NCBI GenBank assembly: GCA_963833095.1
Contig: CAWHWQ010000001.1
Span: 448,001 to 512,000, forward strand
Direction of reading: 5' to 3'
Source: Vulcanimicrobiota bacterium
GTDB taxonomy: Bacteria; Vulcanimicrobiota; Vulcanimicrobiia; Vulcanimicrobiales; Vulcanimicrobiaceae
Length of the DNA: 64,000 nt
Shown here in pieces: positions 43,301 through 52,300 of the stretch. The position numbers are program-made. Numbering within the stretch: position 1 is the stretch's first letter; the number at the start of each line of letters is the position of its first letter.

Positions 43301-46300
43301 TCGAGCGCGATTGCCTTCACGCACGCGTCATTCGCGGCCCCCTCGATCGCTTTCTCGCGCACTTTGAGGACCAGCTCGTCGCCAATCCGCGAGAACCCGG
43401 GCTTCGGCGATCCCGGCTTCACGTGCACACGCAGGATGCCCACCGGCGCTAGCGGCTGGCCAAACGCACGAGCGTAACGCCGGCAGCTGCGGCGAGGAAT
43501 CCGAAGCCGACCGATGACGCAAGATAGACAAGCGCCGGGAAAACGCCCTGTTCGAGCAACGTGAACGCTTCAAGCGAAAACGACGAAAAGGTCGTGTAAC
43601 CGCCGAGTACGCCGGTCGCGAGCAAAACACGAAGAAATGGGGTCATACCTAGCGCGCGCGTCGCAGCCAGCTGCGCGATGATGCCGATGCAGAAGCTTCC
43701 CGATACGTTGATGAAAAGCGTGCCGTAAGGAAAACCGGGTCCGAGGCGCTGCAGAAAAACTTGCCCGATGACGTAACGCAGCACGCCGCCGATCGCCGCG
43801 CCGACCGCGACCGCGACCACGGCACGCCACTCGATCACGTTTTGCCTCGCGAGATACGCATCAACTCGAGGTTCTCGAGCGTAATCAAACCCTCGCTCAC
43901 CATCGAACGCAGCGTCGGCAGAAAGGCCAGAATCTTCGCCTCTTCTTCGATCACCTCGATGAGGGTCGGCAGGTTCGTCGACTGATCGAAGTTGCGCGCC
44001 GCGTGCACGGTCTTGTGAACGCCGAAGCCTTCGATCCCTTTGAGCACCGTTGCTCCCGCAAATCCCGCCGCCTTGAGCGCTTCGACGAGCGCCATATAAA
44101 GCGGACGGCCATCGAAACGGTCGTCCTCGTCAACGAAGATGCGTAGGAGTTTTCCAGTCGTTCGGTCGGGCACGTTGGCCAATTCCCCCCGCAACCCGCG
44201 ATCGCCCGCAGGGAGGCTTTGCCTGTTGCCACGACGGCGCCTCTTCGCGTATAGTAGTGGCAACTCAGCGATGAAGCTCGCTTAACGCCCTCCCGGGCTG
44301 ATGGCTTCTACTCAAGACCGCCCGTACTTTGAGTGGAGCTTTTTTTGTTACAAAGTATCGCGATCAATCTCTGCCAAGTCGCGTTTGTCTGTGGGCTCTC
44401 CCCGCTTGTGGCCGGCATTCTTGCCAAGCTCAAGGAGTTGACGCAGTCCAAGCGCGGGCCCAGTATTTGGCAGCCCTACCGCGACCTGCGCAAGCTCTTC
44501 CAAAAGGACGAGGTCATCTCGAACGAGAGCACGTGGATCTTCCGCGCAACACCGTTCGTCGTCTTCGTTGTCCCCCTCGCCGTCACTCTGCTGATTCCAG
44601 TACTCACGAACTTCCCGCTCTTCTTTGCCTTCGCCGGGGACATGCTCGCAGCGGGCTTCATTCTCGCCCTCTCGGGCTTTTTCTTGACGCTTGCCGCAAT
44701 CGATGCGGGCAACCCCTACGGGGTGATGGGTGCGAGCCGCACACGCATGGTTGGAGTGCTGGTCGAACCCGTGATCATCGTCGCACTTTTCACCGTCTCC
44801 TTCGTTGCGAACTCGACGATTCCGTACATCGTGCAACAGCATTGGGTGACTCCACCGTCCAACTTTTTTTCCGCATCGCACGTACTCGTGCTGATCGCGT
44901 TCTTCATGGTCATCCTAGCCGAAACCGGCCGCATTCCGGTCGATAACCCGAGCGGGCACTTCGAATTGGCGATGATCGATAAATCAAAGACGCTCGAGTT
45001 TTCCGGACCGTCGATGGCGTTGGTCAAGTGGGGCGGCTATATGAAATTTGTCGTCCTCTCGTGCGTATTGCTCAATGTCTTTCTCGCGCCGTGGGGCCTC
45101 TCGCCGTATCCATTACCACTCGCTATTGCGTCCGCCGCATTTTGGATATTCGTGAAGATCCTGGTTCTGATCGGCGTCGTCGTTTTCGTGGAATCGTCGT
45201 TTTCGAAACTTCGGCTCTTTCGCATCGCGGAATTCGTTGGATTCTCTTTCATTGCGTCGGTAACCGCAATGATCACGCAACTCTTACACCTGTGAGCGCC
45301 GGAGAACACACGACATGACGACGTGGCTTTACGACCTCAACGCCTTGGTACTCGGATTATTTGTCCTCTGCGCGATCGGCATGGCGGTCATGCGTCAGGT
45401 CGGGGCCTGCTTACAGGTATTCGTAATCCAATCGCTGCTCTTGGCGGCCTCCGCCTTTCTTTTGGGCGGATCGCCGTGGTCATGGCATCTCTTTGCGCTC
45501 GGCTGCGTTACCATCGCGAGCAAAGCCGTACTGATTCCATGGATACTACGCGCGCTGGTGCCGGGCGAGGTCTACGCACGACGCGAACTTTCGCAGGCGA
45601 TCGGCGTTCCGGCAATTCTCTTGGCGACGCTGGCCCTCGTCCTCGCCGGATATGCGTTTGCCCGCCCACTCAATGCGGCGGCGCCAAGTCTCTCCGCTGC
45701 GAACGTTTCGCTGGGGGCTGCAGGCCTCTTTATCGCGCTCCTGTCGCTCGCGGTGCGCCGTGAAGCGGTTCCGCAAATTCTCGGAATCTTGGCGATGGAG
45801 AACGGCGCCTTTCTCGCCGGCATCGCGATTGCTCCGGACTTTCCGCTCATCGCCGAACTCGCGATCGCATTCGATGTTCCGCTGCTCGCGTTCATCGTGG
45901 CGTTGCTCACCCGCGCCGTCTACCATCACATCGGGTCAACCGAGATCGCCAAGCTCTCGACACTGCGGGAGGCCCCGTGACCCTACTGCCCTTTGCTATC
46001 GCCGGGACGCCTCTTGCGGCCGCCGCACTTCTCGCGCTGCCGCGAAGCGAACGAATCGCCGGCGTCGTCACGGTGGTCGCGGCATCGCTTTCATTCGTGC
46101 TGGCCGTCACGCTTATTATCGGCGTGCGCTTGCACGGGCCGCTCATTGCAATCCCGCACTTCGTCGAGATCGACGGCTTCGGGGCCCTACTGGCGCTTTT
46201 GATCGCACTCGTTGCCACGACCGCGGCGCTCTTTTCCTACGGCTACATCAGGCACGAAGATCCGAATCCGCGACGCGTCAGGCTCTATTATGCGAATTTC

Positions 46301-49300: not shown

Positions 49301-52300
49301 TATAACATGCACCGGTTTGGTTTTTTCATCACGCCGACGCCACGCCAAGCCGACGTTCTGCTGGTTGTCGGGCCGGTGACGCAACAGATGCGCGAAGCCT
49401 TGCTCACCGCCTATCAAGCAATGCCCGAGCCCAAACGCGTCGTGGCCGTGGGCGTGTGCGCCGTGAGCGGAGGCATATTTGGGCCCAGCGTGATGTGCGC
49501 GGCAGGAGCGGGCGACGTGCTCCCGGTCGACGTCGTGGTGCCGGGCTGCCCTCCTCCGCCTTTGGCTATTCTCAACGCGCTCATGGAGGTCTGCAACCGC
49601 AAGCCGTGACGAATTTGCTGCTCGCCGCCTATGCGTCGACGTTTGCCCTTGCACTGCTGGGAGCAATTGCCGCGCTTGTATTTCCGTCGCGCGCGCGCAC
49701 CTTGCTCGCGTGGTTTTCGCTTGCGGCGTCGCTCGCGGCGCTCGCGGCGGGTACCGTCTCATTCTTCGTTCCCGATACCCATGTGGCGCTGTGGGCTCTG
49801 CCCGCGTACGGCCCGCTGTTGCTCAAGACCACGCCGCTGGGCGCGTTCTCGACTTGCATTGCCGCGTTGATCTACGTTCCGGTCTCGATCTACAGCGGCG
49901 CTTACCTTCGGCGCTACGAAGGCGCTTATTCGGTCGCCTCGTTTGCTCTGTGGTACTTCCTGCTCTTCGCGTCGGTCATCGCCGTCTTCGTCTGCGCCGA
50001 CGTCGTCTCGTTTTTCGTCGTCTGGGAAATCGCAGCGATTGCGAGCGCAGCGCTGGTTGCCTTCGAGTGGCGCGACCGCTTGTGCACGCGCGCGGCCTAT
50101 CTCATGCTGGCCATGACGGAGGCCGGTACGGCGACAGCAATCCTCGCGATGTTGATCGTCTTCGCCGGCTCGGGCTCCTATGCGTTTGCACCGGGCGCAG
50201 GCGCGCATCTGCCGCCGCAGCTCGGATGGTCCGCTGCTTTACTTGCGCTCTTCGGTTTTGGCGTGAAGGCTGGGCTTGCGCCGGTGAACTCGTGGCTGCC
50301 GCGCGCCTACCCCGTCGCGCCCGCCAACGTCTCGACGATCCTTTCCGCGATCGTCGTAAATCTCGGTGTGTACGGCATCCTGCTCGTGAACGTCGAATTT
50401 GCGCCGCTGCATTCCCTCGCGTTCGGCGCCCTGATGCTTGCAATCGGCGCCGTTTCAGCTCTCCTCGGCATCCTGTATGCCTCGGTAAGCGATGACGCAA
50501 AAGCAGTCCTGGCCTACAGTTCGATCGAGAATCTGGGAATCGTCGTCGCGGGCATGGGCGCGGGCCTCGTCTTTCTCGACGCAGGGAAGCCCGCCTTCGC
50601 GGCGCTCGGATTTGCCGCTGCACTCTACCACCTGCTAAATCATTCCACGTACAAGGCGTTGTTGTTTCTCGGAATCGGCGTCGTCGATATGCACGCTGGG
50701 ACCCGGAGCATCGATCGTATGGGCGGATTGATCCGGTTGCTGCCCGCGACGGCAGCGTGCGTATTGATCGGTTGTCTTGCGATCTCGGCGATCCCGCCGC
50801 TCAATGGATTTACGAGCGAATGGCTCACACTGCAGTCGCTGCTGCGCAGTTCGGAACTGGCGTCCATTGGGATGCGCGTGACCTTCGCACTCTCCGGCGC
50901 CGTTCTTGCGCTCACCGCAGCACTGGCGATCACCACCTTCGTCAAGATGTTCGGCATGATCTTCCTCGGCGTCGCACGCACGAATTGGGCCGATCGACCG
51001 ATCACCGAAGCTCCCCTTGCGATGCGCGCGGCAATGTATCTCCTGGCCGCCGCGTGCGTGCTACTCGGCATCGGACCGACGTATGTGCTCGGTGTCGTGG
51101 ATCGCGCCTTGCGCGACCTGTCCGGATCGATCGCGTCCTACACGCTCGTTCCGGGATTCCTCTCTCCGTATCCTGGACGGGCACCATTGCCCGCCGGCTT
51201 CGTTGCAACGTTCCACGCATTGGGTGCACAAGTCGGCATGCATGTGGTTCCCGGTCACGGCTTGGTCGTGATGCTGCGCGGCGGCAGCGCAAACCCGGTG
51301 GTGTTTGCGATGTCCACCACCTATCTGTGTCTCATTTTATTCGTACTGTTCACGGCGACATACGCGGGCGTACGTCTGGCTGCGCGCGGTCGCCTCGTGC
51401 AACGTGCGCTCGCGTGGGCAGGCGGACTGCGCGTATTGGCCCCGAGCATGACCTACACGGGTACGGGGTTCTCGAATCCGATCCGCGTGATCTTCGAAGC
51501 GGTGTTCCAACCGGCAACGAACGACGAGCGCGAGACCGTCCAGGAGCATTTTCGTACCGCGATACGGCGCGAACGCCGGAACGACTACATCGGCGACCGG
51601 CTCGTGATAGTACCTGCTACGCGCGCGGTACAGTGGTCTGCGCGCCTGCTCGCCCGCATGCATCACGGCCACCTCGACGCCTACGTGCTCTATGCGCTGT
51701 TCACGCTACTGCTTGCGCTCGGAATCATGTTCGGCTAAGCGTGCGTCGACGTAGGTCTGGAAAGGCGCAGGTATTGCGCCGCTTCAACCGTGAGCAAGCC
51801 CTCGCCCATCATCGTCTCGAGTTCGCCGATCAGCGGCTCGAGTACCGACCAGTCATCCACGACTTCGATGAGGATCGGAAGGTTCGGCAGCCACGAAAAA
51901 ACTTTGGCCATGTGCACTTGGCCATGCCCACCGAAGCCTTCGATCCCGCGAAAGACCGTGGCGCCCGCGACACCGCGCTTGCGCAAGAATTCGACGATCG
52001 CCGTGTAGGTGGGCTGCACGCCGCGCCGATCCGCTTCGTCGACGAAGATCCGCAGCAATTTGCCGTCCCGAAAGCCCTGGGCGCTTTGCATCGACGCGCC
52101 TCCGCGTAGCAAGTAAGAATTCCAAGGAGAGGGAGAGATTCGAACTCTCGGAACGCTTTCGCGTCCTGCGGTTTTCAAGACCGCTGCATTAAACCACTCT
52201 GCCACCTCTCCGGGCGCAGACCCGTATTTTGGTGAGGACCGGCCTCCGACCTTGCGTCGCTCAGCCATGTCCTAGACAGAGGCCGCCGGATCGTCACATT

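Follow-up and report, generated by a model that had tools for sequence, protein, structure and literature searches.

Genes listed as 'formate hydrogen lyase' were tied to the fluoride riboswitch in 2010 (PMC2864571) and again in 2024 (PMC11139923), in the portions of both texts that deal with its regulon, and the locus described here raises the question of what a hydrogenase-like complex does under the control of such a riboswitch. In the window (the whole stretch of DNA that was analysed, 64,000 nucleotides), the riboswitch precedes six co-directional genes at 44345-51738 (+) in the order HyfC, HyfE, HyfF, large subunit, small subunit, HyfB, which corresponds to B-C-D-L-S-A in the lettering of Ehr complexes. 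The features of the locus are as follows:

43449..43838, minus strand: crcB (Fluc fluoride channel), 129 aa; Pfam CRCB E 8.4e-26, TIGR00494 85.2 bits against a cut-off of 80.45
43835..~44173, minus strand: DUF190 gene 1 (PII-like fold), upstream of crcB, start approximate; Pfam DUF190 E 1.4e-33
44226..44255, plus strand: sigma-70-like promoter candidate, TTGCCA-18-TATAGT; 10/12 consensus matches
44258..44317, plus strand: fluoride riboswitch aptamer; Rfam RF01734, 36.1 bits against a gathering score of 34, E 6.3e-7
44303..44346, plus strand: expression platform, hairpin 44303-44340 with U7 run 44340-44346; fold, sequence and conserved arm pairing
44345..45295, plus strand: HyfC/NuoH-like membrane subunit (EhrB-type); Pfam NADHdh E 2e-37
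45315..45980, plus strand: HyfE-like small membrane subunit (EhrC-type); NCBIfam hydrogenase-4 membrane subunit, E 8.3e-15, below cut-off
45977..47404, plus strand: HyfF-like antiporter-type subunit (NuoN/M, MbhH-like; EhrD-type); Proton_antipo_M E 1.3e-46
47392..48879, plus strand: large subunit, fused NuoC+NuoD/HycE-type (EhrL-type), alternative start 47365; Pfam Complex1_30kDa and Complex1_49kDa
48893..49609, plus strand: small subunit, HycF/NuoI remnant and NuoB/HycG-type domain (EhrS-type); Oxidored_q6 E 7.7e-27
49606..51738, plus strand: HyfB-like antiporter-type subunit, NuoL-like (EhrA-type), with a long C-terminal extension; Proton_antipo_M E 1.7e-43
51735..~52091, minus strand: DUF190 gene 2, convergent with the operon, start approximate; Pfam DUF190 E 8.6e-29

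The initial annotation had placed a fluoride riboswitch with a terminator hairpin ahead of the operon, and this was borne out. The aptamer belongs to RF01734, the fluoride riboswitch or crcB motif RNA (Weinberg 2010, Baker 2012), and is the sole match to that family in its own genome (2.8 Mb, 80.7% complete), where it is placed before the six-gene operon and not before crcB. Its low score partly reflects the pseudoknot (GAAG/CUUC), where a compensatory A-U pair takes a place that is G-C in 114 of 119 related aptamers; covariation among 120 related aptamers backs both P1 and the pseudoknot. The 3' tail of the aptamer is one part of the platform hairpin, a terminator that overlaps the aptamer and competes with the pseudoknot. 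The energy of this hairpin (-13.5 kcal/mol) is not unusual against shuffles (z only -1.4), and the same arm pairing is kept in 12 related leaders. The Shine-Dalgarno sequence GGAG (44335-44338) lies inside the 3' arm, and the TTG start codon at 44345, 27 nt from the aptamer, takes the last two U of the U7 run. When fluoride is absent, the tail would pair with the downstream arm, and the resulting hairpin would both stop transcription at the U-run and bury the Shine-Dalgarno sequence; when fluoride is present, the tail would be held in the aptamer pseudoknot and the six genes expressed. The promoter candidate is suggestive only by its position directly before the aptamer, as the single promoter-like site in 43300-52400 (9.1 kb) is a count not above chance (1.9 in shuffles).

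Also as previously annotated, crcB and two DUF190 genes flank the operon on the opposite strand, their Pfam and TIGR00494 matches all being on the minus strand. The crcB gene is the single PF02537 match of the 80.7%-complete genome. The match of DUF190 gene 1 spans residues 38-133 of a 142-aa ORF (43835-44263); PF02641 matches the genome twice, DUF190 gene 2 being the second hit, and the long ORF of this gene, which reaches 52268, overlaps a tRNA gene. The divergent DUF190/crcB unit has no riboswitch of its own, the R1 model matching the window once.

Whether the operon encodes a genuine hydrogen-evolving formate hydrogenlyase or hydrogenase-4, which would consume cytoplasmic protons, can be judged from the large subunit. 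Homologs carry the labels 'formate hydrogenlyase subunit 5' or 'Ni,Fe-hydrogenase III large subunit', the regulon passages of PMC2864571 and PMC11139923 place formate hydrogen lyase among the riboswitch-linked genes, and the best solved matches of the large and small subunits are HycE, HycG and HycF of the E. coli enzyme (HycBCDEFG-FdhF, 7Z0S). The large subunit matches HycE (7z0s_E) at E 2.2e-48, and its AF2 model (pTM 0.84) has the same chain as its best Foldseek match (TM 0.82). Against this, it has no CxxC motif, as the initial annotation had noted, and in the HycE alignment all four Ni-Fe cysteines, that is both ligand pairs, are replaced: the N-terminal motif reads ERCNGTAAF where HycE has DRVCGICGF, and the C-terminus is GLSVAENDR where NiFe enzymes carry ..C..C.DR. 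Both pairs are likewise lost in 120/120 of the closest database homologs and in 77 of the 78 large subunits from related loci. The Pfam NiFeSe_Hases score (25.2) falls under the cut-off of 25.8, neither HypD nor a NiFe large subunit was found in the 80.7%-complete genome, and the operon is without FdhF or HycB. The hydrogenase reading is therefore contradicted by the sequence and is hardly credible; the ligand loss supports the earlier view that the predicted complex is neither a formate hydrogenlyase nor any other NiFe hydrogenase. The regulon texts (PMC2864571, PMC11139923, in the same passages) take the genes for a real formate hydrogenlyase connected with fermentation, whereas the riboswitch-linked complex of the window is NiFe-less and belongs to a single clade in which the riboswitch is always linked.

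The remaining subunits place the complex, a membrane-bound relative of complex I and of the group-4 hydrogenases, among several known systems. The top NCBIfam matches are hydrogenase-4 (Hyf) subunits B, E and F, all scoring below the curated cut-offs; that of the HyfB-like subunit is full length (E 5.7e-150), and the HyfE-like subunit has in addition a weak Pfam Oxidored_q2 match (E 0.0024). The GTG start of the HyfB-like gene overlaps the stop codon of the small subunit gene. Compared with formate hydrogenlyase and Hyf, the complex lacks the NiFe ligands, HycB/HyfA, a separate HycF/HyfH, HyfD, FdhF and the maturation genes. With respiratory complex I (Nuo) and the MBH/MBS complexes it shares a modular plan of NuoB, NuoCD and NuoH plus antiporter-like subunits, and the best solved matches of the HyfF-like subunit are Pyrococcus MbhH (6cfw_H, E 1.6e-34, in an alignment that includes the Lys/His core) and MbsH (6u8y_H). 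Like the window complex, MBS lacks a NiFe site. Unlike complex I, the window complex has no NADH module, its NuoI is reduced to one cluster, and quinone-site residues are not conserved: in the alignment, Gly/Ala and Ala stand where Thermus Nqo4 has its quinone-binding Tyr and His. No NuoA or NuoJ homologs were detected, and a separate canonical NuoD is encoded elsewhere on the same contig, outside the window.

The identification as a complex of the Ehr kind, made in the initial annotation, agrees with the six-subunit make-up of Ehr in the descriptions given in PMC7894505, PMC6688271 and PMC10284858: a NuoL-like, a NuoH-like, a HyfE-like and a second antiporter-like subunit, a CxxC-free large subunit and a small subunit. 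Ehr complexes (ehrABCDLS; the name stands for Ech-related or energy-converting-hydrogenase-related) are described in the same sections from, for example, Geobacter sulfurreducens (GSU0739-45), Methylacidiphilum and Nitrospira, and their function is given there as unknown. The small subunit of the window differs from Ehr in its HycF-derived extra cluster domain. The gene order also differs, as the other sampled NiFe-less clade begins with the antiporter-like genes, and large-subunit identity between the two clades is at most 38%, the Geobacter and Methylacidiphilum Ehr being set beside them by description.

Judged by large-subunit identity, the operon belongs to one discrete clade, within which identity is at least 46% (median 59%), while identity to true NiFe enzymes, to the other NiFe-less clade and to adjacent second operons is at most 39%; its members are labelled as coming from about a dozen phyla. 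The linkage sample comprised 80 related loci from genome contigs, with at least 366 further relatives lying outside it. A same-strand fluoride aptamer was found upstream in all 66 loci that include the start of the first gene, at 9-304 nt in 61 of them and at 780-1938 nt in five; in four of these five, same-strand crcB and DUF190 genes separate the aptamer from hyfC. The Rfam gathering score was passed by 12/14 evaluable leaders tested, including six of the eight lowest-scoring. In contrast, no aptamer was found in 80 control loci (825,596 nt), which are the surroundings of large subunits of two kinds, 39 from true NiFe enzymes and 33 from other NiFe-less complexes (32 loci with at least 5.5 kb upstream), nor in an Rfam scan of seven of them; for the other NiFe-less clade alone the count is 0/33. 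The linkage to the fluoride riboswitch is thus clade-wide. The link in relatives claimed in the initial annotation therefore stands (66/66 in its own clade, 0/80 in sister clades), but its figure of three loci in eight understates it because that count mixed subfamilies. In a further copy (G181:C69) no aptamer was seen in the 2.6 kb ahead of hyfC; an extra hyfB-like gene precedes hyfC there, and the contig ends just some 175 nt beyond that gene. A decayed copy has no leader. The complex is an accessory trait, present in 12/201 sampled genomes of the phylum, and a fluoride riboswitch is still present in 11 of 20 same-family genomes without it.

CrcB or DUF190 is encoded within 29/47 long target loci compared with 0/19 long controls, and the other aptamers in the target loci precede classic fluoride-regulon genes, namely those for CrcB, DUF190, a MutS-domain protein, enolase, NUDIX and a phosphoesterase. 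Enolase is such a riboswitch-controlled neighbour in two loci (L031 and L053), which could favour a complex that runs in reverse and spends the ion gradient on reducing a low-potential carrier, for instance ferredoxin, that runs short once fluoride has stopped glycolysis at enolase. The related Ech/Rnf-type complexes are reversible. This reading is nevertheless very improbable, as no linked ferredoxin-dependent enzyme was seen in the loci examined and reverse operation would drain a proton-motive force already lowered by fluoride cycling (according to the fluoride physiology set out in PMC11139923).

The small subunit bears on whether electrons are moved at all. It retains CxxC...C...PGCPP, in agreement with the NuoB-type cluster cysteines previously annotated, and matches HycG (7z0s_G) at E 3.1e-29; positions 3-98 of the family profile match HycF (7z0s_F) at E 3e-4. 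The N-terminal HycF/NuoI remnant has one 4Fe-4S motif and the NuoB/HycG-type domain has the proximal-cluster cysteines. Seven Fe-S cysteines are 95-100% conserved among 78 small subunits from many phyla. The canonical fourth proximal-cluster Cys (PGCPP) is Cys in 25 of these 78 (N in 25, Q in 14, H in 6), compared with 31/32 and 20/23 in two sister groups, and about 18 of the 78 have Cys neither there nor at the alternative position 202; in the window's protein all four ordinary cysteines are present. This variability weakens the claim of a redox drive.

The same variability, together with the loss of both the NiFe ligands and the quinone-site-aligned residues and with no electron-input partner encoded nearby (no NuoEFG, HycB/HyfA or FdhF in or beside the operon in any locus examined), would fit a redox-independent Mrp-like antiporter that exchanges Na+ or K+ for H+ and so keeps pH steady when fluoride is a stress, the peripheral arm being a structural or regulatory relic. 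The antiporter-type subunits do match Mrp subunits in the PDB (7qru, 6z16, 7d3u), and PMC11139923 ranks Na+/H+ antiporters second in frequency among the riboswitch-linked classes. We consider this unlikely, however, since the seven Fe-S cysteines are so widely kept, since 113 positions of the large subunit (the replaced motif ..LSVAENDR among them) are at least 97% conserved, which exceeds expectation for a relic, and since neither Pfam nor NCBIfam searches show an equivalent of MrpB, C, E, F or G in the operon.

The Ser, Glu, Asn and Asp of the C-terminal ligand motif are clade-specific and invariant, and the relaxed fourth cluster ligand is peculiar to the clade. With the exclusive riboswitch linkage, and with crcB/DUF190 sharing one riboswitch-led string of genes with the operon in at least four loci as well as their frequency in the long loci, these features could be taken to mean that F-, HF or a metal-fluoride binds in the old NiFe pocket and at the modified proximal cluster, and that the complex exports or senses fluoride directly, possibly with Fluc and DUF190. 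Such a role is improbable: the antiporter-type subunits retain the usual cation/proton residues, the cluster ligands of the window's small subunit are ordinary, and to our knowledge no complex-I-type module moves or binds anions.

We therefore favour, at slightly better than even chances, a fluoride-induced, probably redox-driven Ehr-type ion-translocating complex whose task is to re-establish pH and membrane potential while HF and fluoride cycle. The riboswitch, its platform, the set of subunits, the lost NiFe ligands and the riboswitch linkage across the clade are established by the sequence and its comparison. In their Proton_antipo_M cores, both antiporter-type subunits keep Lys/Glu/His residues at 97% conservation or above, in alignment with MbhH, and 134 residues of the HyfC-like subunit are conserved to the same degree (69 sequences). 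From these residues, the Fe-S cysteines and the fluoride physiology outlined in PMC11139923 we infer the ion translocation, read in the initial annotation as proton or sodium pumping, the redox drive and the physiological purpose; the direction of translocation and induction by fluoride in vivo are inferred as well. [quoted passage not shown] HF diffusing in and F- leaving via the neighbouring CrcB would thus dissipate both cytoplasmic pH and membrane potential, and the complex would restore them by exporting cations, probably protons. The energy would probably come from electron transfer through the two clusters and not from fluoride-inhibited phosphoryl-transfer chemistry. The setting in an acid-soil bacterium that had been proposed is supported only indirectly, the DNA records being labelled as soil and peat metagenomes.

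No paper linking Ehr complexes with fluoride was found in the literature. The riboswitch common to the examined relatives points to an unrecognised role of this complex in fluoride survival. Going by the loss of the NiFe ligands and the clade linkage, what lists of the fluoride regulon have long called 'formate hydrogen lyase' is, in this case at least, an Ehr-type complex unable to make H2.

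The operon lies behind a fluoride riboswitch and consists of six tightly packed genes, all in one direction, which were assigned from an ORF listing with Pfam and NCBIfam. Positions are those of the window unless a locus is named.

43449-43838, - strand: crcB, the fluoride channel (Fluc) gene, upstream of the operon on the opposite strand, alongside the first gene for a DUF190 protein (PII-like fold)
44226-44255, + strand: sigma-70-like site immediately 5' of the aptamer, the sole one in 9.1 kb, the site count being not above chance
44258-44317, + strand: fluoride riboswitch RF01734 (36.1 bits against a gathering score of 34, E 6.3e-7; Rfam scan of 40000-56000)
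44303-44340, + strand: hairpin (-13.5 kcal/mol), with U7 next
44345-45295, + strand: gene 1, HyfC/NuoH-like
45315-45980, + strand: gene 2, HyfE-like
45977-47404, + strand: gene 3, HyfF-like, antiporter-type
47392-48879, + strand: gene 4, large subunit, fused NuoC and NuoD
48893-49609, + strand: gene 5, small subunit, NuoB-type
49606-51738, + strand: gene 6, HyfB-like, antiporter-type

The hydrogenase-4/Nuo subunit NCBIfam matches of the operon all fell under the curated cut-offs, so the encoded proteins are relatives of these families and not members of them. A second DUF190 gene (51735 onward, -) is convergent and lies downstream of the operon. The genome (2.8 Mb, 8 contigs, 80.7% complete) has one CrcB match and two DUF190 matches, all three flanking the operon, and a search of it with RF01734 returned a single site, 44258-44317. 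Around this block, a cytochrome c ORF (41675-42379, -) shares about 100 nt at its 5' end with the 5' end of a glutathione-S-transferase-like ORF (42275-43186, +), a tRNA-Ser(tga) follows the second DUF190 gene at 52125-52211 and has the same position in the related loci L004 and L008, and a sulfatase gene (52339-53886, +) comes after the tRNA; the cytochrome c, glutathione-S-transferase-like and sulfatase genes have no evident connection to the operon. Between the window and five Eremiobacterota-type loci (L003, L004, L005, L008 and L010), the second DUF190 protein shares 89-95% identity, whereas the operon proteins of the same loci are only 55-74% identical to those of the window.

Among solved structures, the large subunit is closest to HycE of the E. 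coli formate hydrogenlyase (7z0s_E, E 2.2e-48). HycE was also the top structural match of the AF2 model (pTM 0.84; TM 0.82 to 7z0s_E), followed by E. coli NuoCD, in a model that is unreliable at residues 106-182, including the loop facing the small subunit. At the N-terminal R.CG.C motif, HycE DRVCGICGF aligns with ERCNGTAAF in the window, and the C-terminus reads GLSVAENDR where NiFe enzymes from the same searches have ..C..C.DR. In the database, the 120 nearest homologs of the large subunit (49-94% identical) are all without CxxC and have a nearly invariant C-terminal motif, [DG]LSVAENDR; CxxC is likewise missing from 77 of 78 large subunits of related loci. True NiFe relatives in the same searches keep both motifs. 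Neither HypD (PF01924) nor a NiFe large subunit was found in the window's own genome, where at 80.7% completeness absence is unproven, and a canonical NuoD is encoded elsewhere on the same contig. No FdhF or HycB-type ferredoxin partner is encoded in the six-gene operon or by its flanking genes.

On sequence grounds, then, the NiFe cysteine pairs that mark a group 4 [NiFe] hydrogenase are missing, and the complex is neither a hydrogenase nor a formate hydrogenlyase. The initial annotation had said that it was no formate hydrogenlyase, and this is borne out by the replacement of both cysteine motifs in the window and in 120/120 closest homologs. A real hydrogenlyase, as the kinship with HycE might suggest, is extremely improbable.

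The small subunit has kept its Fe-S ligands in large part. Seven cysteines are 95-100% conserved across 78 related sequences and form a CP...CxxCxxC in an N-terminal extension and the CxxC...C of a NuoB/HycG-type proximal cluster. Positions 3-98 of the family profile match HycF, the NuoI homolog of E. coli FHL (E 3e-4), which indicates that the extension is a NuoI/HycF remnant with one cluster left, fused to a NuoB-type domain. The window protein has the ordinary four proximal-cluster cysteines, the fourth being that of PGCPP (residue 219, 49547-49549). Across the clade this canonical fourth ligand is Cys in 25/78 members and is replaced in the other 53 (homologs in L002-L081, the 80 related loci from other genomes), with Asn in 25, Gln in 14, His in 6 and other residues in the rest; it is Cys in 31/32 and 20/23 evaluable small subunits of the two sister groups, the true NiFe hydrogenases and another NiFe-less clade. 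Of the 25 Asn forms, 23 have a Cys at position 202, a pattern that suggests a ligand swap in these proteins, and about 18 of the 78 have no Cys at either position.

In both antiporter-type subunits the core Lys, Glu and His of Proton_antipo_M are at least 97% conserved and align with the corresponding stretch of MbhH, and the NuoH-like subunit has 134 positions conserved at 97% or more; strong purifying selection acts on the whole assembly. An extra HyfB-like antiporter subunit follows the operon in L045, L024, L035, L048, L055, L076 and L077, and in L045 this gene (14827-17140, +) has its own fluoride aptamer 25 nt upstream.

Compared with known systems, the complex differs from complex I at the quinone site of NuoD, having Gly and Ala at the positions aligned with the quinone-binding Tyr and His of Nqo4, and no NuoE, F or G of the NADH-oxidising module is encoded in the operon. 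The seven-subunit MrpA-G set is also incomplete: MrpA/D-like Proton_antipo_M subunits and a weak NuoK/MrpC-like match are present, and no MrpB, E, F or G was detected in the operon by Pfam/NCBIfam. The agreement is with Ehr complexes, both in a large subunit of NiFe/NuoD fold without NiFe cysteines (from sequence and the AF2 model, pTM 0.84, matching HycE then NuoCD) and in the six-subunit set by Pfam/NCBIfam (NuoL-, NuoH- and HyfE-like, a second antiporter-like, a large and a small subunit), as that set is listed in PMC7894505 and PMC6688271. The other NiFe-less clade is at most 38% identical to the target clade, and the likeness of the target clade to the Geobacter Ehr proteins is one of subunit description.

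Against a redox drive of the complex stand the missing input module, an acceptor site not assigned and the variable fourth ligand. An antiporter that works independently of redox reactions would agree with these points but less well with the seven conserved cysteines of the small subunit, and is given some weight as a minority alternative.

In the leader, the expression platform overlaps the 3' end of the aptamer, which is the architecture expected of an ON-switch. The aptamer 3' tail, with the 3' strand of the pseudoknot, forms the 5' arm of the hairpin, GGAG (Shine-Dalgarno, 44335-44338) lies inside its 3' arm, and the TTG start of hyfC at 44345 consists of the last two U of U7 and a G. The hairpin would thus be able both to terminate transcription and to mask the ribosome-binding site. 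Its energy is not unusual against shuffles (z -1.4), and its significance comes from the arrangement of GGAG and start codon rather than from folding energy; the arm pairing is also present in 12 related leaders.

In an alignment of 120 aptamers, taken from the window and related loci, pairing reaches 93.7% in P1 and 98.8% in the pseudoknot, compensatory changes occur in 4/5 pseudoknot pairs, and the covariation score was reached by 0/500 shuffles; the third-helix columns are 24% paired and mis-registered in this alignment. The window pseudoknot has an A-U pair where 114 other aptamers have G-C, a compensatory change. A decaying aptamer, which the weak Rfam score in the window had suggested, was rejected because the deviation is this compensatory pair.

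A large-subunit alignment scan with one genome per species gave at least 446 relatives, and the best 80 loci were analysed. Their records name Eremiobacterota/Vulcanimicrobiota, Acidobacteriota, Verrucomicrobiota, Alpha-, Beta- and Gammaproteobacteria, Desulfobacterota, Nitrospirota, Planctomycetota, Gemmatimonadota, Binataceae, Actinomycetes, Campylobacterales and Parachlamydiaceae, and the order of the six genes is identical at every related locus whose contig extends far enough. Rfam found ten fluoride aptamers in six of seven loci, the seventh ending at the first gene, and a covariance model built from these ten gave 134 hits in the 80 loci and the window. A same-strand aptamer lies upstream of the first gene in 66/66 loci that contain its start (among the best 80 of at least 446), at 9-304 nt in 61 of them and at 780-1938 nt in five. 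In L027, L066, L074 and L079, crcB and DUF190 sit between aptamer and hyfC on the same strand, and in L025 an ORF of no family does so; CrcB-DUF190 fusions in L074 and L079 were considered and rejected, as the reading frames differ.

The remaining 14 loci comprise 12 cut by contig ends, L028, which was left out of the count since its N-terminus is divergent but which has an aptamer 277 nt upstream, and L061. The latter (5000-14300, Verrucomicrobiae-labelled) is a decayed operon copy without a leader aptamer, in which hyfC has lost its N-terminus, hyfF is split into two parts separated by about 2 kb, and both the large and the small subunit are truncated. Of 14 evaluable leaders, 12 reached the Rfam gathering score, among them six of the eight with the lowest scores in the built model; the leaders of L006 and L011 fail this threshold and keep the aptamer core in the alignment. 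The initial annotation had counted a riboswitch at three of eight relatives, and the linkage it saw is real; the figure was too low, since subfamilies had been mixed, and within the target clade it is 66/66.

For the control set, metagenomes were scanned with the nearest true NiFe large subunits as seeds, which gave 80 loci (825,596 nt). Its large subunits comprise 39 with the C-terminal cysteine pair, 33 of the other NiFe-less clade (with tails such as LSYSGNDL) and 8 that are cut. No fluoride aptamer was found in these 80 loci by the built covariance model, 32 of them reaching 5.5 kb or more upstream of the large subunit, and none by Rfam in seven long ones. CrcB or DUF190 occurs within 29/47 long target loci vs 0/19 long control loci. 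Large subunits are at least 46% identical within the target clade (median 59%) and at most 39% identical to every other group, and as this comes from a pairwise matrix, monophyly is based on the identity gap rather than on a supported tree. Four target loci hold a second, distant, also NiFe-less hydrogenase-like operon (L078:531-6013 (-), L011:2-5402, L013:16471-21451 and L069:210-5712; large-subunit identity 31-40%), of which only that in L078 comes with an aptamer of its own, oriented divergently to the main leader. The contrast between target and control loci makes the fluoride link a property of this clade and not of hydrogenase-like complexes generally.

Within the phylum, the clade large subunit was found in 12/201 sampled genomes (E at most 1e-100); in the window's genus, 2/4 other genomes carry it, at only 60% identity. 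Fluoride riboswitches are present in 11/11 other carriers (1-5 each) vs 11/20 same-family non-carriers. Every one of these 11, some of which are probably the same genomes as loci in the 80-locus count, has at least one copy whose large subunit is preceded on the same strand by an aptamer at 3.1-3.6 kb. An extra copy on G181:C69, a contig of another genome of the phylum, has no aptamer within 2.6 kb, a hyfB-like gene before hyfC and about 175 nt to the contig end. As a trait, the complex is accessory and patchily distributed, and it travels together with its leader. Plasmid relatives of the large subunit were distant only (at most 34% identity), and no cultured plasmid-borne clade member was found. 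Records with the window sequence are DNA contigs labelled as soil, peat or drinking-water metagenomes, with no RNA record among the 20 matches listed.

These clade loci hold further aptamers, which lie ahead of crcB, DUF190, MutS-domain proteins, enolase, NUDIX, phosphoesterases, AAA ATPases and a number of proteins of no family, and the regions around the clade operons are fluoride islands. Proteins with MutS domain V (ATPase) only, 511-568 aa long and far under the MutS1 and MutS2 cut-offs, have an aptamer directly before each of their genes in L014, L018, L019, L023, L056, L061 and L074; these genes may be the ones called 'mutS' when the crcB motif was first described. Proteins of 207-220 aa (L008:5955-6575 (-), L009:5139-5798 (-) and L012:5227-5865 (-)) are encoded directly 3' of a second, divergent fluoride aptamer adjoining the operon leader; they matched no Pfam or NCBIfam family and may represent a fluoride-regulon family not yet characterised. 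A dozen more aptamer-proximal ORFs of 120-290 aa are likewise without family.

Sequence and comparison establish the ON-switch architecture, the set of subunits, the lost NiFe site and the clade-wide fluoride linkage, and the package is, on balance, probably a fluoride-induced Ehr complex that acts in ion homeostasis and is probably redox-driven. PMC11139923 describes how HF diffuses in and dissociates and F- leaves through Fluc, so that on balance protons enter and the membrane potential falls. With its pair of antiporter-type subunits and a coupling subunit of NuoH type, the complex would be suited to cation expulsion; a complex built of the same subunits and running in reverse is very improbable. 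Redox drive through two clusters would bypass phosphoryl-transfer chemistry, which is inhibited by fluoride.

The former NiFe pocket is now lined with invariant Ser, Glu, Asn and Asp, and this, together with the 53/78 members whose proximal cluster has no canonical fourth Cys, can be cited for a more specific function. Pocket and cluster would then bind fluoride, HF or metal-fluoride, coupled to ion translocation, and instead of a general pH pump the clade would be a machine dedicated to fluoride that forms a working unit with Fluc and DUF190. This is speculative and unlikely, and if true it would be the first respiratory-type complex to sense or export fluoride with energy input. Direct handling of fluoride by the complex, on which the same pocket would bear, is distinctly improbable beside antiporter-type subunits that keep the usual cation and proton residues.

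In PMC10284858 and PMC7894505, Ehr complexes occur in many phyla and their role is stated as unknown or never investigated; those without NiFe ligands are described for Nitrospira (PMC10284858) and for Geobacter (PMC7894505, 'never been investigated'). A pH-homeostasis role was suggested without evidence for the Methylacidiphilum Ehr in PMC6688271. The association of the riboswitch with 'formate hydrogen lyase' has been in print since 2010 (PMC2864571), and a 2024 review treats the riboswitch-linked enzyme as one of fermentation (PMC11139923). The accessible parts of the Weinberg 2010 supplementary files make no mention of hydrogen lyase or hydrogenase, and a full-text literature search, with most subscription journals outside it, found no paper linking fluoride to Ehr or hydrogenase-like complexes; one on Cupriavidus and one on Pelobacter had no bearing on such a link. 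Riboswitch and complex type are known; what is new is a sharply delimited, previously unrecognised clade with universal fluoride control.

One well-separated Ehr clade is therefore under fluoride-riboswitch control in every evaluable case while its nearest relatives are not, which joins the Ehr and fluoride problems and gives this clade its first concrete, testable physiological condition, fluoride at low pH. The long-standing 'formate hydrogen lyase' label is corrected, and H2 production comes off the list of fluoride responses. For structural biology, the complex offers a natural variant of the complex-I coupling site, with a NuoI remnant-NuoB fusion, a variable fourth ligand and Ser/Glu for the Ni ligands. 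The operon is a transferable cassette that may increase fluoride tolerance where Fluc channels alone fall short, and it could matter for engineering organisms that degrade organofluorines.
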